From an uncultured virus (IMG/VR IMGVR_UViG_3300035495_000309) (lineage: Duplodnaviria > Heunggongvirae > Uroviricota > Caudoviricetes), in the IMG/VR virus record IMGVR_UViG_3300035495_000309: a stretch of 20,000 bases of DNA. One strand, written 5' to 3'. Positions within the stretch are counted from its first letter, which is position 1. Each line of letters begins with the position of its first letter. The notes beneath the pieces were generated by a model, which saw only the letters and a list, made by a program, of their open reading frames with translations, had not been told where the DNA came from and made no database searches. The translations under genes were made by a program, and so were the position numbers. Positions 1,547 through 20,000 of this stretch are shown here, in pieces.

Positions 1547-1641
1547 CTTATTTTCCTCCTTGGAATAAATTCAACATGAGATTTCTTTCTCTCTCACATC
1601 AATTAAATATTACATAAATAAAATCAGAGGAAATGCAAAAG

Positions 1642-2385
1642 CTAGAGTAACATCATAAGAAACTTCAAAATCAATTGCAAGTTATAAGAAGTATCAACCA
1701 GCTCCAGATTTTCTGTATATTCTTCATCTGCATATCTCCCATCAAAATAATGGAAGTTACTTCTTGCATTGAATTCTCTGTAATATCCAGGGTCTAATTT
1801 TCTCCATTTGTATTGGTCATAAAAATCCCTGATATATCTTAAATAAGAATCCCTTGGTGTTGCTTCAATGCGATGAATCATATCGTTTAAAAAGGAACCG
1901 AAATACATGCTATGCTTTGTTTCATAGATTTCGTCATCAATTCCTTTTATATCTAACCCTTCTGGTTTCTTAAATATCTTAACTCCCAAATTCACATAAG
2001 AAGTATAAGCATTCTTCTTTCGAAAATTAATATTCTTAGTCACTTGCTCGTGCTCTACATAACGGGTAACAAAGATTGCATCCCTATGAATGGATACAAC
2101 CTCTTCCTCTAAAATCTCATTTTGTTCAAAAAAGAACTTCCTGGCTGCTTCAAAGGCAATTTTCTCTTTTGCAGAATACCCTTCTGTATCTCTCTTGATA
2201 CAACCAATAGCAATCTCTCGTTCTTTCTTTGGTAAATTTTCTATCTTGCGAATTTCTTCTTCTGGCAATAAGTCGAATTCTCTCGCAAGCGAAGTATTTG
2301 CACTCTTCATATCATACTCAATAATCGTATAGTTGAAGAGTGCATTCAGTGGTGTATCATAGCTGTCTCTTGACCATAAAGCCAT
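1642..2385 (-). CDS. Putative minimal DNA polymerase palm-like (family B-like) subunit
   Basis: IIEYDMKSANTS resembles PolB motif A (hhxhDxxSxYPS) and VSIHRDAIFV resembles motif C (YxDTDSxFV). Only 247 aa, no exonuclease domain. Motif resemblance only. Confidence 0.5.
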   Translation of the reverse strand: MALWSRDSYDTPLNALFNYTIIEYDMKSANTSLAREFDLLPEEEIRKIENLPKKEREIAIGCIKRDTEGYSAKEKIAFEAARKFFFEQNEILEEEVVSIHRDAIFVTRYVEHEQVTKNINFRKKNAYTSYVNLGVKIFKKPEGLDIKGIDDEIYETKHSMYFGSFLNDMIHRIEATPRDSYLRYIRDFYDQYKWRKLDPGYYREFNARSNFHYFDGRYADEEYTENLELVDTSYNLQLILKFLMMLL

Positions 2386-2388
2386 AAT

Positions 2389-3024
2389 TTATCCCTCTTT
2401 AAAGTTGTCTTCTAACAACTTTCTCATCTCATCAAGATCGAGTCCATCATAATCAAGTTTACGATGTTTCAACTCTTTCTTTACTTTCTTCTTTGATAAT
2501 CCTGTTACATATCTACGAACTTCAGCTGGTCGCATCTTCATTCGGTGCAACCGTTTTACCTCTTTCTTATAATACAACAGGCGTTCCAACACATCTTCCA
2601 AATCAAAACTCCGTTCTTCCGGATATAAACAGACTGGAAAATGTAAAAGATCTTCAATCGTCTCAGCAATAATTTGCATATACCCAGAACGCAATTCATT
2701 TGGACTGCATAAAAATAGTGTATTCTCATCTGCAACCAAGAATGCTTGTACTGTTGAAATGATTAGATCTAGTGATTTTGGTTCCCTGAGAAGAAAAAAT
2801 TTAAATTTTTCTTTTGCCAATTCGGAGTCGGAATCTAATTCCATCCCGACTCCTTTTAACATCCCAGAGTTGATAAACATGTTTGAAGCCATAAGCACAT
2901 TGTCATATTCTTTCGTCACTTTAATGCGACTACTGATGATAATGAAATTGGTCTTCTTAATTACCTCTGGGTCTTCCTTGGCATATTTCTTCATAAGGGT
3001 TATCGTATCTGCGTAATAAATCAT
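2389..3024 (-). CDS. Hypothetical phage protein
   Basis: 211-aa ORF packed in the minus-strand operon, with a GGGGGTG RBS. Confidence 0.75.
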   Translation of the reverse strand: MIYYADTITLMKKYAKEDPEVIKKTNFIIISSRIKVTKEYDNVLMASNMFINSGMLKGVGMELDSDSELAKEKFKFFLLREPKSLDLIISTVQAFLVADENTLFLCSPNELRSGYMQIIAETIEDLLHFPVCLYPEERSFDLEDVLERLLYYKKEVKRLHRMKMRPAEVRRYVTGLSKKKVKKELKHRKLDYDGLDLDEMRKLLEDNFKEG

Positions 3025-3046
3025 TTACTTCACCCCCGAAGTTTCT

Positions 3047-4717: not shown

Positions 4718-5942
4718 TTTGATTTTCCTCCTTAATCTTGTACTGCTCTAAAGCATTATCATAATAACCAGCTGCTAAACGATCTTCGAATTCTTCGAAT
4801 GTTTCAGGAGCTGGGTCATTGTTATTGACATGTCGACGCCCAAATTTAAACATAGATTCTCCAGACTTCTTACGTTCTTTCTTAATCTTGCTGTAAATTC
4901 TTGCATACGCCCCATGTACGAATTTTGGATTAAACGGCTTTGACTCCTCTGTTTGAGTTAATATATAGCCTTTCTCTCTGATATCACCAATCTCTTCTTC
5001 TTGATCTTTCCTGGAAATTCGTTTTCTGATATCGCGGAACGAATACTTCTTTCCACATGTATTACAAATCAGATTATTAAACTCCTTATCATAATAAAGA
5101 ACAGAACTTGGTGAGCATTGGCACTGGAACTGCTTAAACTTTACAGAATAGATGTATGCATAATCCAAGATTACAATGCTTCCATCATCTCGAAATCCCC
5201 AGTTTACATAATTCGTAGAATTAATTCCAACATCACCAATCATGAAATCTGTTGCAATATCTGTAAGAATCTCTCCCATACGAATCGTGTTCTTCCAGAA
5301 ATCATCGATTGTGAAGATTTCTACATATTCAAACACTGCAATGAGTCCGTCTGCATATGTCTCATAACACTTGATCACATATGGTTGTAATGGAATTGAG
5401 TAAATAAACTCTCGCTTATTATCAATCTTTCCATCATCATCACATGCAATCTTTATTACATATCCATCGACCATTCCTGCCCAACGATTCGTTCCACCAC
5501 CTAATGGGGAATATTCTTTTCCCCATTCATCCAACTTCTCTCGATATAGAGAAATCTTCTGATTATTCGTGATGGTAAACGTACGCTGAATCTTCTCGAT
5601 TTCCATTGCCTGCTCTACGGTAAAGATCTCAAGCAACAAGCTCCGATACACTCTCTCCTTTGGATAATACTTCGGAGCCGCTGCTTCGATATCTTCATCG
5701 GTAATTCTTCTGGAAGAGAAAGTATCTTCCTCTTCCTTTTCATCTTTTCCAACCTTAACACCAAATTGATCTTCTGGATTTTCCGGATAAATTCTACTGG
5801 CATTGATTGGATCATGCTCTTTTAAATACTGATCATAATTATACTCCTCGGCTAAAGTTTCATCTTCTTCTAACTGTGCTAATTCCGCAGCTAAAGATTC
5901 TCTTTCAGCCTGAGATAACATCTCTCCAATATTAAATCCCAC
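4710..5942 (-). CDS. Protein-kinase-like fold protein with C-terminal Zn ribbon
   Basis: Gly loop LGGGTNR, beta-3 Lys (YVIKIA), helix-C Glu (DNKRE), catalytic-loop-like DVGINSTNYVN and DFG-equivalent ILDYAY, followed by CQC...CNTC. Confidence 0.7.
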   Translation of the reverse strand: MGFNIGEMLSQAERESLAAELAQLEEDETLAEEYNYDQYLKEHDPINASRIYPENPEDQFGVKVGKDEKEEEDTFSSRRITDEDIEAAAPKYYPKERVYRSLLLEIFTVEQAMEIEKIQRTFTITNNQKISLYREKLDEWGKEYSPLGGGTNRWAGMVDGYVIKIACDDDGKIDNKREFIYSIPLQPYVIKCYETYADGLIAVFEYVEIFTIDDFWKNTIRMGEILTDIATDFMIGDVGINSTNYVNWGFRDDGSIVILDYAYIYSVKFKQFQCQCSPSSVLYYDKEFNNLICNTCGKKYSFRDIRKRISRKDQEEEIGDIREKGYILTQTEESKPFNPKFVHGAYARIYSKIKKERKKSGESMFKFGRRHVNNNDPAPETFEEFEDRLAAGYYDNALEQYKIKEENQNG

Positions 5943-7357
5943 TACTTACCACTCCCTTTCCACATCATGTTCTTCATCTTCTTCTCATAATCTTTCATGG
6001 TTGCTTCATCAGAACCTACCATGTCTAATAAGAGAGAATCGAATGAACTCGCTTTCTTCTTAGCTTCTTTTGATACTTTCTTTTTCTTCTGCTTCTTCAT
6101 TTTCTTGTTGATCTTCTGCTCGGTTTCACTATTGTATGCCTGGATACTTCCATTGATTCCTTCCAGATTTGCTGAATTCTGCTTCGTCTTAAGATCAGAT
6201 AACATCTTCTTCAAAGACTTGATCTGCTTCTTCTGAGCTGCTCTTGTCTTTTCAAGCTTCTTCTGCCTCTCTTTATTGCCGTAAAGATTACGCAGATTGT
6301 ATCCATTCTCTTCAAGCATCTTCTTATATTCCAGCTCTTCCTTCTGTGCTTCTGTAATGGTGTTTTCTCCATACTTCACTAAATTATGCTGCTTTTCCCA
6401 CTGCTCCATCTCGAACATATAACGACTAACAGCTTCTTCATCCATAAGAGAACCATTAAATTCTGGACGAACATCACCAAGCTTTCGATCTCTCTCATCC
6501 TGGAATTCGCGAATCCATTTAAGATCATCTTCCTGAATCTGCCACAGATAGGTCTTCTCTCTCTTAGAATCGTGATCCATTTCACGAATCATCTTCTCAT
6601 ATCCCGGGAAGTGTTTTACAAGTGCTTTTCTTTGCCGCTTCGTTTCTGGTAATACGAAACCACCATCTCCACTTGTATAACTTGCTTTCGTCGGAGCTTT
6701 GTAACTCATAATCCGCTTTGCAAATTCATTATAAGTTGCTTCTCCCATGTACTGCTTGACTTCATCGATATCAACTTCTTTCTCTTCCTTGACTTCCTCT
6801 TCTCTACATTTTGAAGTGGATTGACTCTTAAGAAGTTCATCAATATCTCGATTTGGATTCAAGATATATTCAATGATATAATCCCAGTTTAAGGTCTTCT
6901 TTCCTTTTCCTTGATACTTTGGAATTGTAAGTCCTGCGATCTTAAGCTTCCCCTGAAGAACTTTCAAGATGAATTCATCTGGATCCATAACTCCATTCTT
7001 TTCTGCGGTATCCATGACGATTTCTACGACTAAACGACAGGCTTCAATATACTTGTCCAATCTTCGGATCTTCTTTGTATAATTTCGCCTTAAATGGAAG
7101 AACTTCGAGTACCGCTTACGCTGTGCTTCTCGTTCTTCCCGTGACATGTGATAATCATCCTCAAAATCCTGGACGACTACCTGTGAATAAGTTTCCCTCA
7201 TTTTGGCTAATTCTTCTGGAGGGATATATTCATTTTCAATCGTTCGCTTCTTTACTTTTAGGAATTCACTAGGAACTTCCCCTCTACTGGCCATTTCTTG
7301 TCTAGTCTTCTCTTCTACGTAGTTTTGATTCCTAGACGCGTCTAAAGATATGCCCAT
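5942..7357 (-). CDS. Highly charged, probably coiled-coil hypothetical protein
   Basis: 471-aa K/E-rich ORF with AAAGGAG RBS, first gene after the promoter-like motif at 7390-7405. Confidence 0.8.
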   Translation of the reverse strand: MGISLDASRNQNYVEEKTRQEMASRGEVPSEFLKVKKRTIENEYIPPEELAKMRETYSQVVVQDFEDDYHMSREEREAQRKRYSKFFHLRRNYTKKIRRLDKYIEACRLVVEIVMDTAEKNGVMDPDEFILKVLQGKLKIAGLTIPKYQGKGKKTLNWDYIIEYILNPNRDIDELLKSQSTSKCREEEVKEEKEVDIDEVKQYMGEATYNEFAKRIMSYKAPTKASYTSGDGGFVLPETKRQRKALVKHFPGYEKMIREMDHDSKREKTYLWQIQEDDLKWIREFQDERDRKLGDVRPEFNGSLMDEEAVSRYMFEMEQWEKQHNLVKYGENTITEAQKEELEYKKMLEENGYNLRNLYGNKERQKKLEKTRAAQKKQIKSLKKMLSDLKTKQNSANLEGINGSIQAYNSETEQKINKKMKKQKKKKVSKEAKKKASSFDSLLLDMVGSDEATMKDYEKKMKNMMWKGSGK

Positions 7358-7389
7358 TTTGCAAACTCTCCTTTCTTATACTACTAAAT

Positions 7390-7405
7390 AGATGATATAT
7401 AAATG
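7390..7405 (-). promoter_or_regulatory. Candidate phage promoter motif CATTTATATATCATCT
   Basis: One of 4-5 similar CAYTTATATAHYATYT copies, each upstream of an operon start in the same orientation. Confidence 0.55.
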
Positions 7406-7541
7406 ATTTTCAAGTTGATTTTTACATCTCTATTATTTTCTGGGTTAAATATAGAATTACAAATCATAACATGATTGTAATGGTCATAACAGATCAGGCA
7501 AACCCACAGCTTGTTAAGTTGATCGTTTTACGACTCCGGTG

Positions 7542-7588
7542 AAAGAGGGAACGCAGCGTATTCTTTATTACGCGTGCGTTCCCCTTTT
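7542..7588. terminator. Terminator hairpin downstream of 7596..8288
   Basis: GGGAACGCA-GCGTA / TACGC-G-TGCGTTCCC stem flanked by short A and T runs. Confidence 0.6.
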
Positions 7589-7595
7589 GCTGCCG

Positions 7596-8288
7596 TTATG
7601 CAGCATTTGTAACTTCGGCTTTTACTTCTACCTCGTCTTCCATTTTAACAGGCATCTCGAAACCATCCACATTGATGTATGTGAACTTTTCCTTCAAAAC
7701 ATCGAAAGAGTTCGAATTCAATTCTTTAGTCCTTTCAATTGCCTGCTCAATCTTCCTTCGAATCCCAGCATTTTCTTTCATATCCAGTTCTTCCTGGTAC
7801 ATCTCAAGGAATGTACGGAAATCACCAAATACCATGTAAAGTGGGATTGTAAGTTTATCCGATTTATGGACAACTTCGTGAAGTGTTTTACTAAGAGGAA
7901 TTAACCCTACCTGATTCATATAATGAATTCGGGTTACCTCCTCTGCAAGAAGTAAGGTGTTTATTTCTTCACCTGTACGAATAGCTCTGTCTAATACCAA
8001 CTTTGTGATATCATATAATGTAAGCGGCGCATGATGAACCTCAATACGAACTTTCTTATTATTCGCCTTTGAGACGTTATTAAAGAAAGCACAAGCATCC
8101 ATCCCTACATTGGCACGTAAATATGCAATGTAATCAGAATACTCTAAGGATGCTCGTACTTCAGCTTCAACAGCCTTTACGATATTATTCTTTTCAGTAT
8201 CGGTTTCACAAGCTTCCTGGTATTCAAATTCTCCAGGATTCTCGAATACGACAACTTCAATATTGTCATTTGATTCAGTCGAAACCAT
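7596..8288 (-). CDS. Hypothetical protein, possibly HNH-like fold
   Basis: 230 aa with GGAGGT RBS. The pattern CAFF...IEVHH...GLIPLSKTLHEVVH resembles HNH (EhHH...Nh..LC..CH...H) with degenerate Cys/Asn positions. Confidence 0.55.
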   Translation of the reverse strand: MVSTESNDNIEVVVFENPGEFEYQEACETDTEKNNIVKAVEAEVRASLEYSDYIAYLRANVGMDACAFFNNVSKANNKKVRIEVHHAPLTLYDITKLVLDRAIRTGEEINTLLLAEEVTRIHYMNQVGLIPLSKTLHEVVHKSDKLTIPLYMVFGDFRTFLEMYQEELDMKENAGIRRKIEQAIERTKELNSNSFDVLKEKFTYINVDGFEMPVKMEDEVEVKAEVTNAA

Positions 8289-8327
8289 GCTATCACCTCC
8301 TTTAAAGAAGTGTAGAGACCTGAGTTT

Positions 8328-8963
8328 CTAAACAAAAGCTGTTGCTGCAGCAAGTTCCATTTCTGTTAAGTCTTCTTCTCGTTTGCATTCACAGGTAGAA
8401 ATGAAATCATCTCTATAATATTTCCCGTAAAGATACATGTAAACAGCAAACATATCGTATTGAAGTCCAATATCAGTAACGCCCTCGGCAGTATTTCCAA
8501 GGCCTACATTGAAATGCTCAATCACACGGTTATACCGAAGAGCATATAATGCTTGCCGATATTCTGGTTGGAATATCTCAATTGGAAGAACTCCAGGGAG
8601 CTGACTAAAGATTGCATGTACATCACAAGTGTGATTTAAAAACTCCAGTTCATTTTCTGTATATAATACTTTGATGAATGATGGAATCCGGTATTCATCA
8701 TCACTTGTAATGAGCGTTTCAAAATAGCTCTCACTAAGAAGTCTACTGCGATTCGCAATGAGATATTCATCGACGTTGTCATCATCAATATTGTCAGAAC
8801 GCTCGATAAATAAATCCATATTCCTTTGCTTTCTGAATCTTTTTGCATATTCCTTTTCCTGTGTTAATGCATAAAGAGGATACGCATAACGAAGTTCATC
8901 TTTCGATACCCTTTTTCCCTCTTCCGGCTTTAAATAAAACCTCCAAACTTTCATAAATCTCAC
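8328..8963 (-). CDS. Hypothetical protein, tandem paralogue family member 4
   Basis: KVWRFYL...LYALTQEKEYAKRFRKQRN...IFQPEYRQAL motifs shared with its neighbours. Confidence 0.8.
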   Translation of the reverse strand: MRFMKVWRFYLKPEEGKRVSKDELRYAYPLYALTQEKEYAKRFRKQRNMDLFIERSDNIDDDNVDEYLIANRSRLLSESYFETLITSDDEYRIPSFIKVLYTENELEFLNHTCDVHAIFSQLPGVLPIEIFQPEYRQALYALRYNRVIEHFNVGLGNTAEGVTDIGLQYDMFAVYMYLYGKYYRDDFISTCECKREEDLTEMELAAATAFV

Positions 8964-9637
8964 GTCCTTTCTTCTGTCTCGTAAATAGAGCTATAAACAC
9001 GGTCCATCCTAAATAATTCCTGATAATACTCAAAGAAGATAGCAACCTCATCAATTACAACAGATGGTTCCACTGAACTCTCTCCGAAAACGATCAACTG
9101 TGTATACATGACCAAATCAAGAATTCCAGCAGTTACTAAAGCTTCTCGGAATTCTTTCTTTGCACATTTGATAAGAATGCTCATTGTTCGGATCATCTCC
9201 TTTGGGTATTTATCAACAATCATATCGTCATAATACTCTAAGGTATTATCAATGATTTGATGTTCATGGGGAGGAATTGGGATTTTTATTTCAATATCTC
9301 CATGATCATTCCCACCCATACCTGGAAAATTATAGGATGGGGTTGCAATTCCATCGACTGTGATTTCATACATTCGATTTCTCGATTCAAAGTCTTCAAG
9401 CTCTTCTTTTGTATAATCTCTGATGTCTTTTTCCTTTACGACAAACCTATTCTCATTTCGGTAATACATGAATTTCTTTAGCATCTTCTTACTGAATGTA
9501 TAGGCGTAGTAATATGCTTCTTGCTTACTGTAAGATACGAAATCTCCATTTCCCTCTCGAAAACTCAAATCTTCTATAATAACAGCGTTCTCGAAAGGTC
9601 CTACAATATAAATCAAATATAAATGCTTATGCGCCAT
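8960..9637 (-). CDS. Hypothetical protein, tandem paralogue family member 3
   Basis: HLYLIYI...YYAYTFSKKMLKKFMYYRN...KKEFREAL motifs. Confidence 0.8.
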   Translation of the reverse strand: MAHKHLYLIYIVGPFENAVIIEDLSFREGNGDFVSYSKQEAYYYAYTFSKKMLKKFMYYRNENRFVVKEKDIRDYTKEELEDFESRNRMYEITVDGIATPSYNFPGMGGNDHGDIEIKIPIPPHEHQIIDNTLEYYDDMIVDKYPKEMIRTMSILIKCAKKEFREALVTAGILDLVMYTQLIVFGESSVEPSVVIDEVAIFFEYYQELFRMDRVYSSIYETEERT

Positions 9638-10271
9638 TTGTGATCACCTCTGCTATTGCTTCTTCATTTAAAAGGTCTCCATATAAAACAAGCATTACAC
9701 CAATGGTATTCTTCCATCCACGAGTCTTTGTATAGTGAGCAAGTTCTGTCAGATGTTCCATCTCATTGATACTTTCTCCTTCTACATCAACTAGCATATC
9801 ACAATACCCAAGATCTCGTAAGATTTCACGGTATTCCTCCTTAAAGATATTAATACTGGGAAGTTTAGGAAGGCCTTGCATGAAATAATTGATAGATTCT
9901 GCACGGCATTCCTTTGCATACCAATACTCTGATGTTGTGAAAGGAAAATTTATTATACAACCATCCGGATCATAGAAATCATACTCATCAATTGGGAAAA
10001 TAACTTCATTAATCATAATCTTGCAATACTTATAAAGATCTCCCTCCAGTTGATTATATTCGGATTTCGACATATTCACAACTTTCTCTTTTATAAGATT
10101 TGGATTTCTTGTAACTTTGAAAAACTCAGCATAACGCTTCTTATTTGTATATGCGTAAAGAAGCGCCTCCGAATTAATTTCTGGATTAAGTCCTAACCAA
10201 TCCAGCAATCCATTATTTGCTAATTTCTTGATGTTCTGCTTTCCTAATAAATAGAATAAATAGACTTTCAC
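9627..10271 (-). CDS. Hypothetical protein, tandem paralogue family member 2
   Basis: KVYLFYL...LYAYTNKKRYAEFFKVTRN...IFKEEYREILRDLGY motifs. Confidence 0.8.
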   Translation of the reverse strand: MKVYLFYLLGKQNIKKLANNGLLDWLGLNPEINSEALLYAYTNKKRYAEFFKVTRNPNLIKEKVVNMSKSEYNQLEGDLYKYCKIMINEVIFPIDEYDFYDPDGCIINFPFTTSEYWYAKECRAESINYFMQGLPKLPSINIFKEEYREILRDLGYCDMLVDVEGESINEMEHLTELAHYTKTRGWKNTIGVMLVLYGDLLNEEAIAEVITNGA

Positions 10272-10765
10272 TTATTATCACCTCCAATTCCATTTAAGTC
10301 TAATAAATCACCATAATAATGAAGGAAGGTATTTAACATATCCGGTTGATAGACATCAGTAATTCCATTTACCCATCCTTCATGAGCTTCTTTATATCCA
10401 ATATCGCATAATGCTTCCTGCATCTCTTTTGTAAATACTTCAAGTGGCAAACATGCAGATGCATATATGCCGATAAATGCCGCTTGATTTCCTGCTCGTT
10501 CAATTGTGAGCTTTTCAATCATTGTAATAGGAAGCTCCAATATGTATTCACCGACCTCAAACTTATAAAGCATTAAGCGTTTACTATGATCTTCTTCATG
10601 AAGTATTGCAAGGTCTTCTGATGTCATTGGAACTTCCTTTTTGTAAAACTTTTTCATGTCTCTTGTGTGTTGAAACCCCTTTATTAATTTCTTCTCCTCG
10701 GAATATGCCCAGAGTTCTTCGGTTTCAATCAAATAGAAAAATGTGTACTTAATGCTTCTTTCCAT
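10268..10765 (-). CDS. Hypothetical protein, tandem paralogue family member 1
   Basis: KYTFFYL...LWAYSEEKKLIKGFQHTRD...VFTKEMQEALCDIGY motifs. Confidence 0.8.
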   Translation of the reverse strand: MERSIKYTFFYLIETEELWAYSEEKKLIKGFQHTRDMKKFYKKEVPMTSEDLAILHEEDHSKRLMLYKFEVGEYILELPITMIEKLTIERAGNQAAFIGIYASACLPLEVFTKEMQEALCDIGYKEAHEGWVNGITDVYQPDMLNTFLHYYGDLLDLNGIGGDNK

Positions 10766-10913
10766 CTTTTTTCTTTCTGCGTTCTTTTGCGCGTTTTACT
10801 ACTTGGTCCGGTGTGTCCGAACACTTCGGACTATTATTCGGAGATATTAAATCTCCGAATAAAAACTTCACTACTTTCTCTAAAATGCTTTCTCTTCTTG
10901 TTGGATCAATCAT
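10749..10913 (-). CDS. Small basic hypothetical protein (54 aa, start MIDPTRR)
   Basis: AAAGGAG RBS 8 nt before the ATG at 10913. First gene after the promoter-like motif. Confidence 0.65.
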   Translation of the reverse strand: MIDPTRRESILEKVVKFLFGDLISPNNSPKCSDTPDQVVKRAKERRKKKDGKKH

Positions 10914-10957
10914 GATTTTGTCTCCTTTCAAAAAATGATTCTATAGATATCCTAAAT

Positions 10958-10973
10958 AGATATTATATAAGTG
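10958..10973 (-). promoter_or_regulatory. Candidate phage promoter motif CACTTATATAATATCT
   Basis: Recurring motif. It also shares the downstream ATTTAG with the copy at 7390. Confidence 0.55.
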
Positions 10974-11009
10974 AGATTTGGACGTAATTTTTCAAGTTAA
11001 TGGGTAAAA

Positions 11010-11035
11010 AGAGAGATTGACTTTGCAATCTCTCT
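11010..11035 (-). terminator. Terminator-like hairpin
   Basis: AGAGAGATTG/CAATCTCTCT inverted repeat, with an A-tract on the left (T-tract on the minus strand). Confidence 0.55.
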
Positions 11036-11269
11036 ATCGTATAAAACTGTGGCTCCAAATCGATAAAATGTTCAATGTAGTAACTTTGTAACAAATAATG
11101 TATCTTGTCGTCAAACAAAAAGCGGTTAATCAATTTATGCATCTGGAAAATTGTATCAAATGTATCTTTGAGAAAGGAGGATTTGAGCCACTCCATAGTA
11201 TGCAGGCGAGTATTATCACCTTACTCGTTTTGTTACATAGCAGATTAGAAATAAAAAAGAGGGCTATCT

Positions 11270-11599
11270 CTAGCCCTCTGATTCACTCTCTTCTTCGGCA
11301 GCACGCTCTTTAATATAATCCATATACTCATCAGCTTTAATCGCCTGATCTGTAACTGAATTGTTACACCAGGTATTGCGGACAAAAATGATTGCTGTCA
11401 TGACATCGGTTATATATTCGTAGGTTTCAGATTCGCTTTTAACGAGTGGATTAAATCCGAAATTAACAGCTACATGATTTAAGATGGCGATAATCATCAT
11501 AATATACGCAGCATATGTCTTCGTATCAATATTTTTCCAATCTATTGCTTTGATGGTTTTCTTCAATTTCTTTATGAAGTTTTTAAATTTCTTTTTCAT
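11270..11599 (-). CDS. Phage holin, SPP1 family
   Basis: Two hydrophobic segments with GFNPL between them, and WCNNSVTDQAIKADEYM matching the SPP1-holin WKNNSFT..A..AD signature. AAGGAGGT RBS before the ATG at 11599. Confidence 0.8.
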   Translation of the reverse strand: MKKKFKNFIKKLKKTIKAIDWKNIDTKTYAAYIMMIIAILNHVAVNFGFNPLVKSESETYEYITDVMTAIIFVRNTWCNNSVTDQAIKADEYMDYIKERAAEEESESEG

Positions 11600-11697
11600 G
11601 GATGTATACCTCCTTTCCATCCTTTTAACTGATTGTGTTTAAATTATTATAGTCATTTTCACAATTACATAGCTTCAAAAAGGAGGAAAGTATCTAT

Positions 11698-11889
11698 ATG
11701 TCAGAGAGAAATTGTTCGCGTTCAGCTGAACAGATCCTTGATAACTTCCCCATTCCAGAATGCCCAGGTTGTAGCTACTTCAAGGAAGAATGTGGCACAT
11801 ATACCTGTAGATGGTTTTCAGAATCAAATGGTGGAACTGAGGGATTTGATGTTACGATACGGGGTGGTTATAAACCATACTATGATTAA
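11698..11889 (+). CDS. Small Cys-rich, probably metal-binding protein
   Basis: 63 aa with AGGAGG RBS and CPGC...C..C residues. Confidence 0.65.
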   Translation: MSERNCSRSAEQILDNFPIPECPGCSYFKEECGTYTCRWFSESNGGTEGFDVTIRGGYKPYYD

Positions 11890-11907
11890 AGAAAAGGAGG
11901 AACTAAA

Positions 11908-13119
11908 ATGGAAGTATTAGAAGTTACATTAGAAGGGATGAATCATTTGATTGAATTCCGTGAATCTGGATCAATGCCGCTTAAAATGAATCGCGTCATG
12001 AATCATGTCGGTGTCCAGATCTTATTAAAGGCATCTCTTCCACAGCTTCTTGTGGCAAAGCAGATGTCTACAAAAATTGCTATGAAAAGACTCACAATGG
12101 CGAAGGCAGAAACAGCTGTTGCAGATTACCCATATCCGGAAGTAGAGGATATTCGTACAAACTTACAGGAATTGATTCCGTGGTATAGTGAGAATCCGGA
12201 TCTTCTGAATCGAATTTCTATTATGGATAAAAATTTCACAAATGATGATCCAGAATCCGAAACAGGGATTAAATCACTTATGGAAACAGTTCCAATTGGA
12301 GCAGTAGTTGGAACTGCTTATTTCTATATCTCAGGATATGATCTCATTGATCTTTGTGATGGAAATATTAGCAAAATCCTTGAAGATTGCATCATAAAAG
12401 ATGACAATCTTAGTGATGATGATTTACAGATCATTGAGATAAATCTTGTAAAGATGTTTATCTCCAAGTTAAACCGGAACTGGATGTATCAGATTGTTGA
12501 GAATACCCAGGTTACAGATACCTGGTTAAAGAAGAATCAATATATCTTAATCCTTACGGATAAAGATTGTGCTGGTTTAAAGAGAATTTATCTGGAAGGA
12601 ACGGGAAGATCAGCGTCTTTTGTAAATGCTGGAGAAGATCTTCCGAAGCAGTTAGAAGATATCGGATCGGGTTACTTTGCATACAAAGGGCAGCACGTAT
12701 ATGCTGAGATCATTTGTTATACACCGATTTTTGTATATTATCTTATTATGCTTGGACTTCCAAATGGAACGATCATTGACTGTGAGGATTATATCAATCT
12801 GATTACACAGTCGCGTGAGTTTTGTAAGATTTTATCTGGTGAAGTTTACGATGAGAACAACTGGGATGTGTATTATACACAGCAAGTTCAGTCAACTCCG
12901 GATGATGAAATGAGTGTTCTTATGAAACATTCATTGATTCCGGGAAATACCAAGATCTCTTATACAATTCGAGCTGAGATAACTAATCTGCTTGTAGTTG
13001 ATGAGATTTCTATGGGACTTTCTCAGTTAGAGGAGTATGACAAATCTGGTGCTTGTGGAACCATCCGAGATCTTATTCGTCATGCACATGAAGCATTTGT
13101 ACATTTTGCTTTTATGTAA
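11908..13119 (+). CDS. Hypothetical phage protein
   Basis: 403-aa ORF with AAGGAGG RBS, followed by a terminator. No motif recognised. Confidence 0.8.
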   Translation: MEVLEVTLEGMNHLIEFRESGSMPLKMNRVMNHVGVQILLKASLPQLLVAKQMSTKIAMKRLTMAKAETAVADYPYPEVEDIRTNLQELIPWYSENPDLLNRISIMDKNFTNDDPESETGIKSLMETVPIGAVVGTAYFYISGYDLIDLCDGNISKILEDCIIKDDNLSDDDLQIIEINLVKMFISKLNRNWMYQIVENTQVTDTWLKKNQYILILTDKDCAGLKRIYLEGTGRSASFVNAGEDLPKQLEDIGSGYFAYKGQHVYAEIICYTPIFVYYLIMLGLPNGTIIDCEDYINLITQSREFCKILSGEVYDENNWDVYYTQQVQSTPDDEMSVLMKHSLIPGNTKISYTIRAEITNLLVVDEISMGLSQLEEYDKSGACGTIRDLIRHAHEAFVHFAFM

Positions 13120-13132
13120 AAAAGACAGTAAA

Positions 13133-13170
13133 AAGAGGGACACGATACGGATTCGTGTCCCTCTTCTTTT
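13133..13170 (+). terminator. Intrinsic terminator
   Basis: 13-bp stem AAGAGGGACACGA/TCGTGTCCCTCTT followed by CTTTT. Confidence 0.8.
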
Positions 13171-13602
13171 ATCGGGTTTCTCGATATTTGATAACGTGAT
13201 AAACTTACAATTGGAGGTGTTTGTTTAACAAGCAGCTATTCTCATTAGGTACCCGAATTTTACCTTGAGAATGTCCATAGCAACTAAATGCCAAAGAATA
13301 CACACAGGAAAAGTGTACCTTTAATCTATTGTATCTAATTCTCATCTCAAATTTTGGGCATCAAAGGGACAGCAGACGCACGCTGTCCCTTATCTAGCCA
13401 GGAGAAGTTTTTTCGTAAGTAGTTATCCATAAAATGAACGTCACAGTAAAAAATCATGTGAGCAAAAAGTAGATCAGGTGTCTGAGTCTGTAACCGTGCT
13501 GATCATTTCCGTTCCCGGTCAGACTCAGACGGTGAACTCGGCAAAATTCACCTTACAACACTGTTTTATTTTTGGTTTAAAAATTTATATAAACTTTAAT
13601 TT

Positions 13603-13618
13603 CATTTATATATTATTT
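13603..13618 (+). promoter_or_regulatory. Candidate phage promoter motif CATTTATATATTATTT upstream of the Cas7-like gene
   Basis: Recurring motif within an AT-rich leader. Confidence 0.55.
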
Positions 13619-13701
13619 AATAGAATAAGGGAATTAAGGAAACCTTATTTAACATCCAAATTCCTAAAAATATTTTAAAAAGACAAAGGAGGAAATGAAT
13701 T

Positions 13702-14553
13702 ATGGCAGGAAGAGTTGGAAGACCAAGAAAGAATCCATTACCGGAGGAAACAAAGCAGATGGAATTACCAATCGGTGAGGAGACAAAGGAAGAGGCACCA
13801 GTAGAAGAGAAGAAAACCAGGAAGACAAAGAAGGCAGCTGAGAAGGCGCCGGCAGCACCTAAAGTAATATTACCGGGACAGATGCTTCCGATGTTTGATA
13901 TCAAGATCAAGATTACATTGATCGAGGATATCCTGGGATCACTTCCGAGTGATGAAGAGATTTATTCTAGCTACATTGCTACCAAGAAGGCAGAGAAGGA
14001 TGCAAAGATTCCGCTTACGGAGGAAGAGAAGCAGGAAGAGATTGCATCGCTGCTGGCGAAGGAGTACAATGAGGCTGAAGAGAACGGGTTGGATGAGAAG
14101 GGTGTTACCATCTTTGCAAAGACGGAGGATGGAAAGCCGTTTTTGTATGACTACGTTATCAAGGGATTCTTTAAGAACGCGTGCAAAGCCATGCGTGAAG
14201 TTGAAGGGTCCAGATCAAAAGGGCTGTCGGCATACAAAACAAAAATCGACAATCTTGTGTTCGTTGAGCCAAGAAAGATTCTCTTCGACATGCCGGAGGG
14301 TAGTGAAATTACAATTTGTCAAAGGCCGTTGCGTGCAAATACACCACAGGGTGAAAGAACAGCGCTTGCAGCTTCAGAATGTATTCCGGCTGGATCAACT
14401 CTGGAATGTACAATCCATTGTTTGAATAAGGAGATGTATGAGAGAGTACCGGAGTGGTTGAACTATGGCCGTTGGAATGGTCTGGGTCAGTGGCATAATT
14501 CAGGACGTGGGAGACTATTATGGCAGGATATTACTACGGTTGACGAAGAGTAA
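13702..14553 (+). CDS. Stand-alone Cas7/RAMP-like RNA-binding protein (Vipr-like)
   Basis: RAMP hallmarks: beta-1 IKIKITLIEDILG, P.h.....IKG.hK helix (GKPFLYDYVIKGFFK), E.hP.G (SECIPAGSTLECTI) and a C-terminal Gly-rich loop GLGQWHNSGRGR. AAGGAGG RBS. No other cas genes in the window. Confidence 0.8.
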   Translation: MAGRVGRPRKNPLPEETKQMELPIGEETKEEAPVEEKKTRKTKKAAEKAPAAPKVILPGQMLPMFDIKIKITLIEDILGSLPSDEEIYSSYIATKKAEKDAKIPLTEEEKQEEIASLLAKEYNEAEENGLDEKGVTIFAKTEDGKPFLYDYVIKGFFKNACKAMREVEGSRSKGLSAYKTKIDNLVFVEPRKILFDMPEGSEITICQRPLRANTPQGERTALAASECIPAGSTLECTIHCLNKEMYERVPEWLNYGRWNGLGQWHNSGRGRLLWQDITTVDEE

Positions 14554-14574
14554 TTTAGACATCTTTTAATAAAA

Positions 14575-14609
14575 AGTGGGTTTGCTATAGCAAACCCACT
14601 ATATTTTTT
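14575..14609 (+). terminator. Perfect 26-bp palindrome plus T-tract (terminator or processing hairpin)
   Basis: AGTGGGTTTGCTA|TAGCAAACCCACT (14575-14600), then ATATTTTTT. Confidence 0.7.
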
Positions 14610-14619
14610 ATCGTTATGG

Positions 14620-15046
14620 AATGGTGAGGCTATTCTAAACAAGGCTGCGTAATGGTATGGTGGTATCAGGTGGAGTCGAGCAATGGAAAGGAATAGTGAT
14701 GTTTCATATTGCAAAGGTATCGTGGTGAGATGTATTATCATGTAATGGTTTTGTGGAGTTGTGGAGATGCGTAGAGTTGTAAAGTAAAGTGATGTAATGG
14801 TGATCCATGGTACAGTTATGTGAAGTAAAGCAAGGGTGTAGTCGAGAAATGTGATGTTCAGGAATGGTACATTAGCGTAGAGTGAGGCATTGGTGAAGTG
14901 CTGACCAGTAAAGTGAAGTATTGGTAAAGTAAGGCTCAGTCCGGCGATGGTAAGGAGATGTAGATTGAGGCACTGTGCTGTTATGGTTGAGTGGAGTGAA
15001 GAGCCGTAATGGTACTGTAGAGTAGGGCAGGGAAACGGTTAAGTAT
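14620..15046 (+). ncRNA. Pentamer-periodic array 1 (putative guide-RNA array, VIPR-like)
   Basis: Parses as (NNxGY)n blocks separated by NNxGGT-type hexamers at 14620, 14651, 14682, 14713, 14744, 14760, 14796, 14832, 14863, 14889, 14920, 14946, 14982, 15008 and 15034. All spacings are 6+5n. The RNA function is inferred. Confidence 0.75.
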
Positions 15047-15109
15047 CTTAAAATTTCTAATATTCGGAGTTACTCTAAATTAAGCATTGCGAAAGGAGGT
15101 GAGAAAGTC

Positions 15110-15388
15110 ATGAGTGTATTTATTAAAGATTGGATAGATCTGAATAATATTCCCAAGGAATCAAAAACGCATATTTTAGAAATTGATATGCGAACCGGTT
15201 GTGCTTGGTTAAGAACAAAAGATCCAAAACCATTAAATCACAAATTATCTATGATGCGACAAATAAAGCATCAAGACGTATATCTATCGACACATACCTT
15301 TTATGGAAAAAGCTACAAGCATTACGAAAAACTTTTACATGCATGTGGATTTGACGTAACACTTGCAAACTGGGACGCTGAAGATTAA
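15110..15388 (+). CDS. Hypothetical 92-aa protein between the two arrays
   Basis: AAAGGAGGTG RBS, normal amino-acid composition, no pentamer periodicity. Confidence 0.75.
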   Translation: MSVFIKDWIDLNNIPKESKTHILEIDMRTGCAWLRTKDPKPLNHKLSMMRQIKHQDVYLSTHTFYGKSYKHYEKLLHACGFDVTLANWDAED

Positions 15389-15392
15389 GCTT

Positions 15393-16146
15393 GATGCTAT
15401 GGTGACGTTGTGTTTTGACTTACCAAGTTATGTAGTGGTACGTTATCGTGCAGCAATGCATAGTTACGGTAACGAAAGGCACAGTCGTGTTATGAATGGG
15501 TGCAGTTAGGTGTACTAAAGTAACGTATAGCAAAGGTATAGTTACGAACTCTTAAGTAGGGTAAAGGCAGGGTCACGAATTGCCATGCTTTGTGTGGATC
15601 GTAATGTATAGGTAAAGTGTATCTAGGTCAAGCGAAGAAAGGGTTGAGACTAGCCCCGCAGCGTAACGGTGTCGTAAAGCGCTGTCTAGTATAGTCAGGG
15701 TTGAGACTAGCCCCGCAGCGTAATGGTATCGTAAGGTGAAATCTGGTAAAGCCTTGGTACAGTCACGTATCATCAAGTATTGTGAAGGATGAGCTAGGAA
15801 TTGCTGAGTAACGTAGTGGTATGGATATGTGCAGAATAGTGAGGTGCCGTTTTGGTATATTAGGGTGCGGTCGCGCCAAGCTAAGTAGTGGTGTGGTATA
15901 GACGAGCAAGGTTCGGTATTGGTAGAGACTGGTGAGGACAAGCGAAGTTTAGTAATGGTACTGTAGAGCATGGTATTGTATTGTAAAGGTATGATAATGT
16001 GGAGACTAGTGTTGTAGTGTGATGGTAGGGATAGGAATGGAAGTGCTAAGTGGTGGTAAAGTGGAGTGCATCTGAGTAATATAATATATGGTAAAGTATG
16101 GTACAGTAAAACTATGTAAAGTGCAGTAAAGGTTAAGTATTTTAGA
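15393..16146 (+). ncRNA. Pentamer-periodic array 2 (putative guide-RNA array, VIPR-like)
   Basis: Same grammar as array 1. Hexamer linkers at 15398, 15434, 15465, 15496, 15532, 15563, 15608, 15639, 15665, 15696, 15722, 15753, 15784, 15815, 15851, 15887, 15918, 15954, 15985, 16021, 16052 and 16128. Spacings are mostly 26, 31 or 36. Confidence 0.75.
15640..15723 (+). repeat. Exact 27-bp direct repeat AGGGTTGAGACTAGCCCCGCAGCGTAA (15640-15666 and 15697-15723)
   Basis: Read directly from the sequence. The offset is 57 nt, equal to one 26-nt plus one 31-nt unit. Confidence 0.9.
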
Positions 16147-16159
16147 TATCAGTATTTGT

Positions 16160-16188
16160 AAGAAGGGATTTTCTATCCCTTCTTTTTT
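16160..16188 (+). terminator. Intrinsic terminator closing array 2
   Basis: AAGAAGGGAT/ATCCCTTCTT stem followed by a T-tract, consistent with + strand transcription of the array. Confidence 0.8.
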
Positions 16189-16217
16189 ATTCCCTAAATT
16201 TGGATTTTTAACATTTT

Positions 16218-16233
16218 CACTTATATACTATTT
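16218..16233 (+). promoter_or_regulatory. Candidate phage promoter motif CACTTATATACTATTT
   Basis: Recurring motif immediately after the terminator and upstream of the next operon. Confidence 0.55.
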
Positions 16234-16399
16234 TGGTGAATGAAAGAGAAGAAAGGTATTGTGAATACATATCTCGTTTTTCTATGATCCGAGAAGCGAC
16301 GTAGGATTGCGAGATGAAAGCAATAAAATGGATTTGATTATCATTCATAAAAACTACGGACAAAAAAAAAGTCCCATGATAAAAAAGGAGGAACTAAAA

Positions 16400-16972
16400 A
16401 TGAGTATTATTAAAACATGGAAAACAGATGGGTGTGATATCACATTATCAGAAGGAACTGTTACGGATAAGCTTTTATCAGGATCAATAAGAGTTGATTG
16501 TTTCTTGTATCCAGAAGCTGCTGTAACTTTCGGTGAATTACCGGAATCGGATGCAGAATTCGTTCTTAAGATTTGTAAGAATCACGGATTCAAGGTAACC
16601 GATAAGAGTCGCTTTGTTAAGGTTTCAGCTATCGCTTCATATAAGGGCGTCGGCATGATGTTTGAAAATGGTTTCTACAGCTCAAATCCGAATATGTCAA
16701 GTAGCTGGATGAAGATCAATTATCTTCCGGCTGATTTGTTTTACGGAAAGGTTGAGAAAGATGTAGTTGACATGACAGTCATTGATTATCTCTTGACAGA
16801 TGAGTTGAGGGAAGCAAAGAAAACATGTGAACTGGATCTCGTTATCAAGCTTCAGTTGAAGCAGAAATCAAACAGATTCCGCAACTTTGGAAAGTTTGAA
16901 AATGTTCTTTCGGATGTTATCAAGTTATCGGAATTGAAGCAGTATCTGGATTATGGAAAGGAAGTAAAATAA
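16400..16972 (+). CDS. Hypothetical protein (start MSIIKTWK)
   Basis: AAGGAGG RBS precedes the ATG at 16400. The track's upstream start lacks an RBS. Confidence 0.75.
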   Translation: MSIIKTWKTDGCDITLSEGTVTDKLLSGSIRVDCFLYPEAAVTFGELPESDAEFVLKICKNHGFKVTDKSRFVKVSAIASYKGVGMMFENGFYSSNPNMSSSWMKINYLPADLFYGKVEKDVVDMTVIDYLLTDELREAKKTCELDLVIKLQLKQKSNRFRNFGKFENVLSDVIKLSELKQYLDYGKEVK

Positions 16973-16974
16973 TC

Positions 16975-17136
16975 ATGAGAAGAGGATTTAGAGATGTTAG
17001 GGAATTAAAGAGAGTTGAAAGAAATCTGCCAGTATTTCCGGATGAGATATTCCCAGATGAAATCGTTGACAAAGATGGGGCAGATGATCTGCCAGATGAA
17101 ATTAGTTTTGATACTTTTAATAAGGAGGAAAAATAA
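16975..17136 (+). CDS. Small acidic protein, 53 aa (MRRGFRDVRELKRVERNLPVFPDEIFPDEIVD...)
   Basis: Manual translation. Fills the gap between neighbouring genes, has an AAGGA RBS and repeated PDEI motifs. Confidence 0.6.
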   Translation: MRRGFRDVRELKRVERNLPVFPDEIFPDEIVDKDGADDLPDEISFDTFNKEEK

Positions 17137-17828: not shown

Positions 17829-17874
17829 AAAAGAAGAGAGCAAGGGTGAAAATCCAAGCTCTCTTCTTTTTTTT
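17829..17874. terminator. Bidirectional terminator between convergent operons
   Basis: AAAAGAAGAGAGC/GCTCTCTTCTTTT stem with A and T tracts. Confidence 0.75.
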
Positions 17875-18466
17875 ATTTTTTCCTTGTATATTCCTCAATA
17901 ATGAAGTTCGGTCCTTCACCTTCAAGGAATGCATGTCTGCTTTGACTTATTCGTTTAAAACCATAATAGTCAATTGCATCTAGTGGAAACTTCACACATT
18001 TCTCAATATCAACACCAAGTCTTGCTGCGTCTGTTTGCACGCGAGTTAATGTGATACGATCCGTAAATGGGAAGAATTCGTTGTAAATCTTCTCACCACC
18101 AATAATACAAATGACATGGTTAAATTGATGAAGATTCTGATATGCCAGTTCAATCGCATCCATTGGATCTTTCGCGATCAAATATCCATCAGATGGTTCC
18201 AAAGTTGTAGATATCACAATATTGGTTCTCTCAGGCAAGGGTTTTCCAATGGAAAGAAAAGTATTCTTGCCCATTATCACCGGTCTTCCAGTTGTCATCT
18301 GTTTGAAATTCTTCAGATCCTCTGGAAGATGCCACGGAATTTTATTATCAATTCCAATAATTCCATCTTCTGATACTGCAGCAATCATGTTGATTGTAAC
18401 ACGACTGCGAATCTCCTGTAATGTGATGCGTTCGTTTATCGTTGTTGCCTTAATTGAATCGTCCAT
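17873..18466 (-). CDS. folA: Dihydrofolate reductase
   Basis: MIAAVSEDGIIG..NKIPWHLPEDLKNFKQMTTG.PVIMGKNTF.SIGKPLPERTNIV and IIGGEKIY motifs. Confidence 0.95.
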   Translation of the reverse strand: MDDSIKATTINERITLQEIRSRVTINMIAAVSEDGIIGIDNKIPWHLPEDLKNFKQMTTGRPVIMGKNTFLSIGKPLPERTNIVISTTLEPSDGYLIAKDPMDAIELAYQNLHQFNHVICIIGGEKIYNEFFPFTDRITLTRVQTDAARLGVDIEKCVKFPLDAIDYYGFKRISQSRHAFLEGEGPNFIIEEYTRKK

Positions 18467-18467
18467 C

Positions 18468-19448
18468 TTAAACTACTACCTCCCCGAAGTCAATATTTCC
18501 CATATGCTCGTATCCTTCAATATGACAGTTGTTAAAGTCATACTTAAAGAAACCGGTCTCTTCAGTGTCAAATACAAACTTCGGTTTTGATTCAATTGCA
18601 AGAATTCCTTTCTCAAGCAATAAATCCTTTGCAATCTTTTCATTCGGATAATCTTCAATATGAATACAATCAATGAGTCTTTGAGCACCTTCAAAGTTGT
18701 CGTCTTCCAGATACTCTAAGATCTCATAATACTTAAGCTGTAATCCAACGCCTTCCATCTGTCTGTCATAGATGTGTGCGTCTGCAATTACATGCGTAAG
18801 ATTTCCAGGCTTTACACCAAGATCTCTTGCAAACTGTAAACAGAGTATTGCATATTGAGTGGTATTAAACGGAACTCCAATAGGGAAGTCTCCACTTCTT
18901 TGATCAACAAGGACGTTTAATCTTCCACCATCTAAGTTCCAGCTTGTTGTGTGTACGCAAGGGATAAATCCCATTCTTGCAAGTTCTTGAGGATTCCAGA
19001 TAGTAGCAACTGCATGTCTACCATTTGGATTCTCACGCAGATATTCCAGAATGTATTCCGCCTGATTCTGATAAGAACGGAATGCTTCTTTTGACTTCTT
19101 TGGAAAGTCCAAATACGTGTTAACCGGGATTGCAATCTGTGCTCCATAAGCAGTTCCAATAGAACCATTCTCATCAGCCCATGCATCCCAGATGTGAGGT
19201 TTTAAGTCATGGATATTGTTGGATTGCTGTTTCCAGATCCATTCAATTTCCTGTAATGCACTTTTTCCTCTTACATTCTTTGACTTGAGGATTGGAAATT
19301 CTTCTTCCAAATCCACTGAGATTACCTGGTTAGGCAATCTTTTTGTTGATACGCCAGTACGCTCATTGACACCATCAGCATAACCATTCTGATAGATGTT
19401 TTTCAAAATCTTGATGTACTGCCTTTCGTAATTTGTTAATTTTCCCAT
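18468..19448 (-). CDS. thyA: Thymidylate synthase (ThyA type)
   Basis: RTG, EIEW, IWDAWADENG, YG, catalytic PC (IPCVH), QRSGD...GVPFN and DAHIY motifs. Confidence 0.95.
   Translation of the reverse strand: MGKLTNYERQYIKILKNIYQNGYADGVNERTGVSTKRLPNQVISVDLEEEFPILKSKNVRGKSALQEIEWIWKQQSNNIHDLKPHIWDAWADENGSIGTAYGAQIAIPVNTYLDFPKKSKEAFRSYQNQAEYILEYLRENPNGRHAVATIWNPQELARMGFIPCVHTTSWNLDGGRLNVLVDQRSGDFPIGVPFNTTQYAILCLQFARDLGVKPGNLTHVIADAHIYDRQMEGVGLQLKYYEILEYLEDDNFEGAQRLIDCIHIEDYPNEKIAKDLLLEKGILAIESKPKFVFDTEETGFFKYDFNNCHIEGYEHMGNIDFGEVVV

Positions 19449-19774: not shown

Positions 19775-20000
<226 letters not shown>

Follow-up and report, generated by a model that had tools for sequence, protein, structure and literature searches.

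A 20,000-nucleotide stretch of DNA from an uncultured tailed phage (Caudoviricetes; IMG/VR record IMGVR_UViG_3300035495_000309), hereafter the window, contains a locus that is very likely a phage-encoded VIPR system, composed of a stand-alone Vipr protein and two guide-RNA arrays, with neither cas partners nor a vap gene. VIPR systems, first described in 2026, are RNA-guided DNA-silencing systems of which seven types have been distinguished (10.64898/2026.04.26.720920). According to the accessible text of the two preprints that describe them, Vipr is a minimal RAMP that polymerises with one protomer per pentamer, its thumb and G-loop hold the bases GGY, and the two variable bases NN pair with DNA, one nucleotide being skipped (10.64898/2026.04.26.720920, 10.64898/2026.04.26.720927). 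An earlier reading of the letters of the window (the original prediction) had likened the locus to such phage systems, and these preprints bear out their existence. All coordinates given below are those of the window, unless another record is named.

The Vipr-like protein and its fold

The vipr-like gene (13702..14553, plus strand) is preceded by a ribosome-binding site (AAAGGAGG, 13685..13692, plus strand), read directly from the sequence 9 nt before the ATG at 13702, and encodes a protein of 283 amino acids (aa) for which neither Pfam nor PHROGs names a family. RAMP motifs had been noticed in this gene from its translation, and the predicted structure agrees with them. The AlphaFold2 model, built from 38 sequences, has a mean predicted local distance difference test (pLDDT) value of 76.7, with values above 90 over most of the core, and contains one RRM only, a helical insertion (residues 85-127), a thumb hairpin and a G-loop. 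When the model was compared with the PDB using Foldseek, which returned 147 matches at E<=0.001, the type VII Cas7 8z4j came first (E 3.1e-8), followed by Csm3, and the top matches were CRISPR RAMPs only. The wide search with VIA gave a Z score of 11.9, all of its top 36 rows being CRISPR RAMPs, and a second look with VIA-align against Csm3 (9g9f_D) aligned 161 of the 199 Csm3 residues with a Z score of 12.8 and a root-mean-square deviation of 3.4. The family profile, in turn, matches the G-loop of type VII Cas7 (E 0.0014).

The two elements expected to contact the guide are well conserved. The thumb beta-hairpin, residues 204-228 (14311..14385, plus strand), is formed in the model by strands 204-214 and 217-228, and the family alignment shows C206, R208-P-L-R211-A, T214, G217 and R219 to be invariant, giving the motif C-x-R-P-L-R-A-x-T-x-x-G-x-R. 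The glycine-rich loop, located from the alignment at residues 255-271 (YGRWNGLGQWHNSGRGR; 14464..14514, plus strand), has G256, G260, G262, W264, N266, G268 and G270 as invariant residues; the motif G-x-G-x-W-x-N-x-G-x-G is found here, with residues 260-271 reading GLGQWHNSGRGR. This loop aligns with the G-loop of type VII Cas7 and with that of the SUSP1 Vipr (GVGDWRPRFGRF).

The family to which the protein belongs is large. A collection clustered at 90% contained 651 homologues at E<=0.001, most of them of about 200 aa and covering about 76% of the query, and an exhaustive profile search reached 2,125 cluster representatives at E<=0.001, 856 of which were found at E<=1e-30. The best match in BFVD is a phage "Cas system-associated RAMP superfamily protein" (45% identical, E 4e-23), and the relatives come from human faecal phage records and from one metagenome-assembled genome of Ruminococcus sp. 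Two family representatives, P0241 (458 aa) and P0251 (432 aa), have two profile-matching stretches each, which suggests that they are tandem-fused double Vipr proteins.

Most homologues are missing the N-terminal extension of residues 1-63 (13702..13890, plus strand), a low-confidence, K/E/P-rich segment with pLDDT values of 52-65 over residues 1-50. Within it lies the motif GRPRK (residues 6-10; 13717-13731), and we take basic motifs of this kind (GRPRK / KKRGRKPK) to be AT-hook-like. Of 267 family proteins, 22 carry comparable basic motifs, in 17 of them C-terminal of the core; the motif stands on a disordered tail, and this tail is located at the N-terminus in our protein and in one further member of the family. 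Judged by its sequence, it may represent a movable DNA-binding tail carried by some Vipr proteins.

Two arrays with a period of five nucleotides

Downstream of the gene and on the same strand lie two G-rich, C-poor arrays, delimited by their period, composition and segmentation. Array 1 (14640..15050, plus strand) spans about 410 nt and holds about 13 units of NNxGY pentamers, and array 2 (15390..16145, plus strand) spans about 755 nt and holds about 21 units of the same build. The original prediction had described about 1.2 kb of such DNA directly after the gene; its composition stands, but the stretch is not continuous, since a 92-aa gene (15110..15388, plus strand) splits it, and array 1 does not follow the vipr-like gene directly, since a terminator-like hairpin of 11 bp (6 G-C; 14575-14600) with a T-run (14575..14609, plus strand; also inverted repeat I2) lies between them. 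A second terminator-like hairpin (16160-16184) with a T-run (16160..16192, plus strand), found by the hairpin scan, closes the locus at the place where a terminator had been foreseen.

The region of array 1 (14600-15050) has a G content of 0.33, a C content of 0.089 and an identity at lag 5 of 0.43, and that of array 2 (15390-16140) has 0.31, 0.119 and 0.406, respectively. The background identity at lag 5 is 0.259 in the vipr-like gene and 0.254 in positions 1-13000 of the window. A sliding period-5 score, used with a threshold of 0.10, exceeds that threshold within the window only at 14576-15100 and 15376-16200. In the surrounding contig of 70,944 bp, which ends at window position 19887, the two peaks reach 0.166 and 0.196, and the maximum elsewhere is 0.064 over 2,758 windows. 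The confinement of the signal to two regions of the contig indicates that the periodicity is real and far beyond chance. TRF did not detect the arrays, because their repeats are too degenerate.

A dynamic-programming split into pentamers ending in G-Y produced 220 pentamers. Positions 1-3 are weakly constrained, position 3 being A in 0.35, G in 0.34, T in 0.21 and C in 0.10 of the cases; position 4 is G in 91%, and position 5 is T in 0.70, C in 0.17 and A in 0.14, so that Y is found in 87%. The consensus NNxGY corresponds to xGY/NN in the published GGY/NN register and is the relaxed form that the original prediction had read from the letters, the example string of pentamers quoted there being located at 14781-14831.

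Each array finishes in a 17-nt motif, AACGGTTAAGTATCTTA at 15034..15050 and AAAGGTTAAGTATTTTA at 16128..16144 (both plus strand), the two copies being 88% identical (direct repeat D8). Array 2 also contains a 57-nt tandem duplication that comprises two units (15627..15740, plus strand; direct repeat D4, 79% identity), whose two copies share one unchanged 5-pentamer unit (at 15640 and at 15697) but have diverged in the unit beside it. We rejected the arrays as coding sequence, their period being 5 rather than 3; the antisense open reading frames (ORFs) at 14487-14741 and 15573-15971 are those expected from a C-poor composition.

Punctuation of the arrays

The period equals 5 nt only locally, which refines the periodicity first proposed. 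In array 1 the identity reaches 0.508 at lag 31 but only 0.21 at lag 30; likewise, lag 62 gives 0.454 and lag 60 gives 0.27. No segmentation is needed for these values. The excess at lag 31 over lag 30 reveals a slip of +1 about every 31 nt. The segmentation places one extra base after every 5-7 pentamers; among 37 units this base is A 24 times, T 6 times, G 5 times and C twice. Both arrays together comprise about 34 units of 26, 31 or 36 nt. Each unit is built from the extra base, mostly A, a head pentamer with GG and then 4-6 further pentamers; 17 units have six pentamers, 9 have seven, 6 have five, and a few are odd. GG occupies positions 3-4 in 36 of 37 unit heads compared with 35 of 181 inner pentamers (Fisher p 3e-20), and since position 3 was not used in the segmentation, the GG head is an independent feature. 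The commonest head pentamer is ATGGT, after a slip A.

The same slip, followed by an A-N-G-G head and 4-6 pentamers, was found in the relatives L003, L007, L049 and L002. The last of these is a 243-kb viral contig whose Vipr is 49% identical to ours; its positions 4600-8597 hold at least 3.9 kb of arrays with at least 82 clean units, which share the T-rich fifth base and the ATGGT heads with the window and reach the end of the fetched stretch.

The regularity of the heads bears on how the arrays should be divided. A GG that follows the slip so strictly resembles a start signal, and the duplicated two-unit block of array 2 suggests modular units; the +1 slip with its GG head may thus act as a unit delimiter. 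Arrays called "staggered", each vrRNA beginning at the point where the previous one stops, already appear in the legend of fig. S18 of the discovery preprint (10.64898/2026.04.26.720920). These observations speak against the arrays being one or two very long guides or scaffolds covered by a continuous filament of 80-150 protomers, in which the slips would be a neutral geometric accommodation at about one per helical turn. To this arrangement we give a low probability, and it does have several features on its side. Neither array has a hairpin or tail for each unit, and an Rfam search of positions 13000-17000 at E<=1 gave six matches, all far below the gathering scores and none of them a hammerhead or other ribozyme. 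Compared with shuffled sequences, array 1 folds somewhat better (z -2.19) and array 2 does not (z +0.67). The end motif is shared and single in each array, and the slips recur every 5-7 pentamers, which equals the number of subunits per turn (5-6) given for SUSP1 filaments (10.64898/2026.04.26.720927). A further, weak test also went against long scaffolds, for the chance-like matches of one unit described under Target searches did not extend into its neighbours. We favour short units, each of which would serve as a separate guide.

Arrays accompany the gene in its relatives

IMG/VR holds at least 576 viral relatives of the locus, and the best 80 of these loci were surveyed for gene-array linkage. 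A G>C period-5 array abuts the gene, upstream or downstream and on the strand of the gene, in 80 of 80 loci, which is what the original prediction had proposed to look for in the DNA adjacent to homologues; in L007, for example, the array at 4501-5550 abuts its gene. Beyond 1.5 kb from the gene, regions of this kind were seen only in L002, which has further arrays, and in L007, where a single weak one occurs. Applied to the SUSP1 record (KT454805, 90.7 kb) as a positive control, the score flags three regions only, which flank the gene pair at 28031-29061, and the 195-aa gene at the flagged locus is that of PDB entry 36pp, "SUSP1 Vipr protein"; the layout is thus as the discovery preprint describes it in its accessible text. 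None of 74 unrelated phage loci used as a negative control passes the score.

This invariable linkage, together with the size of the family and the intact invariant residues of the thumb and G-loop, makes it practically negligible that the locus is a stray or degenerate remnant of a type III or type VII CRISPR system, that is, a lone Cas7 with unrelated repeats beside it. The nearest solved structures, Csm3 and type VII Cas7, are what such a remnant would show. Nevertheless, as had been stated from the letters alone, the window is free of both hallmarks of such systems: no cas family was found among 24 of its ORFs compared with Pfam and 16 compared with PHROGs, and TRF found no repeat-spacer CRISPR array in the 20 kb.

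Relation to the SUSP1 Vipr and fit between protein and repeat

Two alignments were compared, A1 with the homologues of the 283-aa protein and A2 with the SUSP1 Vipr family. The hhalign comparison of A1 with A2 is marginal (E 0.0058, probability 6.4%), extends over 181 collinear columns and places the two G-loops opposite each other. In the SUSP1 Vipr, H17 and D177 read G1, R138 and W178 hold G2, with W178 stacking on it, and C173, T175 and R179 shape the pocket of Y3, as far as the accessible text of the preprint goes (10.64898/2026.04.26.720927). D177, W178 and R179 align with Q263, W264 and H265, the corresponding segments being G-V-G-D-W-R and G-L-G-Q-W-H. The Asp that reads G1 is therefore replaced here by a Gln, nearly invariant in the family, and S/T80 stands opposite H17. 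The family keeps the G2-stacking Trp without exception. A Gln at the G1 reader with the Trp retained fits a repeat in which position 3 is free and position 4 is a fixed G.

The fifth base of the pentamer co-varies with the protein. When residues 259/261/265 were classed across the 80 loci, the combination N/L/H coincided with T at 0.67 (2 loci, both on large contigs and including this one), N/I/H with A at 0.52 (9 loci), and R or S/I/R with C at 0.52-0.56 (47 loci). The single locus with S/L/R, L007, has A at 0.40 and C at 0.34, and the class RG(F/L)SQWR has A at 0.57 (21 loci, the G-loop having been read in 8). That these three residues track the fifth base across subclades is suggestive only, as the loci represent four or five subclades and not independent events.

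Proposed mechanism

We propose that both arrays, which share the strand of the gene, would be transcribed into guide RNAs (vrRNAs) organised in 5-nt steps. By analogy with the SUSP1 structures, one pentamer would be the footprint of one subunit, so that a single Vipr protomer would occupy each pentamer. The thumb and the G-loop would hold the fixed bases, xGY with only G and Y constrained, and the two variable bases would remain exposed and pair with double-stranded DNA, every third base of the target being skipped. A filament assembled on its target could then block transcription of a competing phage or prophage. Published work on the SUSP1 VIPR reports, as far as its accessible text goes, that reprogrammed variable bases redirected the repression of a reporter. 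The GG head could nucleate assembly, and the +1 slip might end each filament or mark a cleavage site, in which case one transcript would yield many short guides, each of about one helical turn.

A more detailed version of this scheme is possible, and we offer it tentatively. In it the arrays would punctuate themselves, as the GG pentamer would nucleate a filament and the +1 slip would either stop it or expose the sole unprotected base to a host RNase, so that a tail-less transcript would be converted into dozens of guides without Cas6, ribozyme or capping. Three or four residues of the G-loop would set the code, the change of D177 to Q freeing G1 and residues 259, 261 and 265 choosing T, A or C.

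Target searches

Seven pairing rules, with 2 or 3 read bases and 0-3 skipped, were applied to a local collection of 693 kb of target DNA, which consisted of 79 homologue loci plus the phage's own contig with its arrays masked, and five shuffled controls were run. For the 34 units of the window, the counts of perfect and one-mismatch matches in the 693 kb fell within the shuffled controls under all seven rules; under the rule of NN with one skipped base there were 21 perfect matches against 4-32 in the controls. The 556 distinct units of the family were also compared all against all. With NN and one skip, 353 units were matched compared with 352.6 +/- 9.4 in the controls, and with NN and two skips the number was slightly high (371 compared with 348.9 +/- 7.0), a value that we do not trust. 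A single scan of IMG/VR with a 14-base gapped pattern derived from the unit at 15852 returned 58 matches on scattered contigs. None of them extends into the two neighbouring units (the best reach 9/14 and 9/12 bases), and they consequently look like chance matches.

The composition of the variable dinucleotides was compared with the six codon registers using 2,311 pairs. Sense codon positions 1-2 fit marginally best, at -3.877 bits per pair, the five other registers being at -3.899 bits or worse; this weak evidence agrees, weakly, with the published rule in which the wobble base is skipped.

The lack of a target would also suit arrays that act as DNA or as a non-guiding RNA, for instance as repeated sites to which the RAMP-like protein binds, or as its decoy or sponge, in regulation or genome organisation, with no pairing to a target. 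So would the bias of positions 1-3 in the first two pentamers of each unit (among the 556 family units, A stands at position 1 in 0.77 of the first and 0.72 of the second pentamers), which means that part of the unit is not free to vary. The remaining positions of the pentamers, however, vary widely, and the units change from one to the next and from relative to relative, as guides do. The strand bias of the array follows the strand of the gene in all of the 80 loci, which points to an RNA product, and both the fold and the G-loop are those of Cas7 proteins that bind guide RNA. With the slight preference for codon positions 1-2 added, we judge such a non-guiding role to be very improbable, and VIPR-type guides remain the reading that we prefer.

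Points against a VIPR system

Several observations count against reading the locus as a VIPR system. No natural target was found under any of the pairing rules tried, in searches of low power, and a unit of 5-7 pentamers specifies only 10-14 bases, which is little for unique targeting. The promoter scan was unconvincing (11 promoter-like sites compared with 9.3 expected), the hairpin at 14575-14600 stands between the gene and array 1, and array 2 shows no more folding than its shuffled versions. No accessory vap gene is present at the locus, and the sole gene inside it is unrelated to VIPR. The link with the SUSP1 Vipr is distant, since besides the marginal hhalign result, an hmmsearch of the A1 profile against PDB sequences left the SUSP1 Vipr chain (36pp) unmatched at E<=10. 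Finally, the 80 loci are not independent, as one prefix is common to 57 of the 80 contig names, and neither are the few subclades behind the co-variation of the fifth base.

The gene between the arrays and the genomic context

The 92-aa gene is preceded by a strong ribosome-binding site (AAAGGAGGTG), and array 2 starts 2 nt past its stop codon. Its product, of unknown function, has 24 homologues with identities of 39-98% in a conserved alignment and is a real small phage gene product; it has no Pfam or PHROG family, and an atlas search was uninformative. The family shows the motifs THILE, YLSTHTFYG and CGFxV-L-NWD and occurs at 75 IMG/VR loci across many phage types. A vipr gene or period-5 arrays lie within 3 kb of it at only one of the 75, the contig of this phage itself. 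The ORF was therefore rejected as a vap accessory gene of the VIPR system.

None of the other 79 homologue loci has either of the flanking ORFs at 11908-13119 and 16307-16972. Among relatives, one neighbour alone is widespread, a cI-type helix-turn-helix (HTH) repressor present at 59 loci, which is probably the phage's own. In relatives of 35-55 kb with a temperate appearance, the array-vipr cassette belongs to the early rightward operon (L003:1441-4630 and similar), with the divergent cI-type HTH repressor just upstream of it and the Sak and SSB genes downstream.

The viral context of the locus is given by an SPP1-type holin in the window as well as by the viral relatives in IMG/VR. Besides the holin, a thymidylate synthase (ThyA) and a DHFR are the only genes that could be named when the 24 ORFs were compared with Pfam. 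A copy of the vipr-like gene with 100% identity lies on an IMG/VR contig of 257,734 bp, which assigns the window to a jumbo-sized phage. Positions 1-11200 (minus strand) contain at least 12 ORFs on the same strand, of 165-556 aa and without a Pfam family, only three of which have PHROG families, all of unknown function, as is typical of jumbo-phage dark matter. The thymidylate synthase and DHFR genes are located at 17873-19448 (minus strand), about 2 kb from the VIPR locus; the SUSP1 record has the same two genes at 23550-24993, about 3 kb from its VIPR, which may be a coincidence of layout. A long poly-A or A-rich low-complexity run occupies the end of the window (19921-19994).

Comparison with known VIPR and Cas7 systems

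Proteins of the Cas7 family polymerise along guide RNA with a fixed footprint per subunit. In CRISPR systems this footprint is of 6 nt on a contiguous spacer, the partners are Cas10, Cas11, Cas5 or Cas14, and the guides come from a CRISPR array by Cas6 processing. The backbone proteins Csm3/Cmr4 and type VII Cas7 share the fold (VIA Z 11-13), the G-loop and the thumb with the protein described here, whereas none of the Cas7 partners of type III and type VII systems and no CRISPR array is present in the window.

The closest resemblance is to VIPR type II, represented by SUSP1 and a Pseudomonas fulva prophage. Like the locus in the window, these have a phage-encoded lone minimal RAMP with RRM core, thumb and G-loop, flanked on the same strand by 5-nt repeats in which fixed and variable bases alternate, without cas genes or CRISPR array; the Trp that stacks on G2 is kept, and the same period-5 scan finds both loci. 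The differences lie in the arrays and in the reading of the first G. SUSP1, in the accessible part of its description, has four vrRNAs of about 100 nt, each with 9-16 strict GGY/NN repeats, a 5' leader and a pseudoknotted invariable 3' tail, as well as vap1, an accessory vap gene being "typically" present beside vipr (10.64898/2026.04.26.720920). Here, by contrast, the arrays are tail-less, amount to about 1.2 kb of xGY/NN repeats and are broken every 5-7 pentamers by a +1 slip that a GG head follows, G occurs at position 3 in only 34% of the pentamers, there is no structured 3' tail and no vap gene, and the Asp that reads G1 is a Gln.

The relaxed repeat and the long arrays have counterparts in the literature. 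The Methods of the discovery preprint, under "VIPR type classification", give the alternative repeats NNNGG, YNNNG and NNNNG, and YNNNG or NNNNG describes the pentamers found here; its staggered layout, given in the legend of fig. S18, fits our +1-punctuated tail-less units (10.64898/2026.04.26.720920). A preprint based on a genomic language model reports 21 period-5 clusters beside Vipr-like folds, with motifs such as WGT/NN or TGH/NN, which are close to (A/G/T)G(T/C)/NN here and to xG(A/C/T) of the relatives; its accessible text mentions no periodic +1 slip, GG heads or jumbo-phage arrays (10.64898/2026.10.21.760802). The locus is very likely a genuine VIPR system, and since its kind, its non-canonical repeats and staggered arrays already stand in the 2026 preprints, it is not a new discovery in itself.

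To this class of RNA-guided DNA binders, only months old and using a gapped code, the locus adds an example resolved in good detail; its clade counts more than 2,000 protein clusters and is characterised by a relaxed repeat and long punctuated arrays. The discovery preprint, in its accessible text, states confirmation by small-RNA sequencing for the ribozyme-interspersed and single-vrRNA layouts and does not list it for the staggered one (10.64898/2026.04.26.720920). If the unit delimiter and the co-variation of the G-loop hold true, they would allow guides to be annotated automatically and compact multiplexed guide arrays to be designed, and the alphabet of the repeat would be predictable, and open to engineering, from the protein sequence. 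Set beside SUSP1 and the other published systems, the useful anatomical detail of this locus is its GG-headed, +1-punctuated units, a relaxed repeat for which the G-loop accounts, and the lack of a vap gene.

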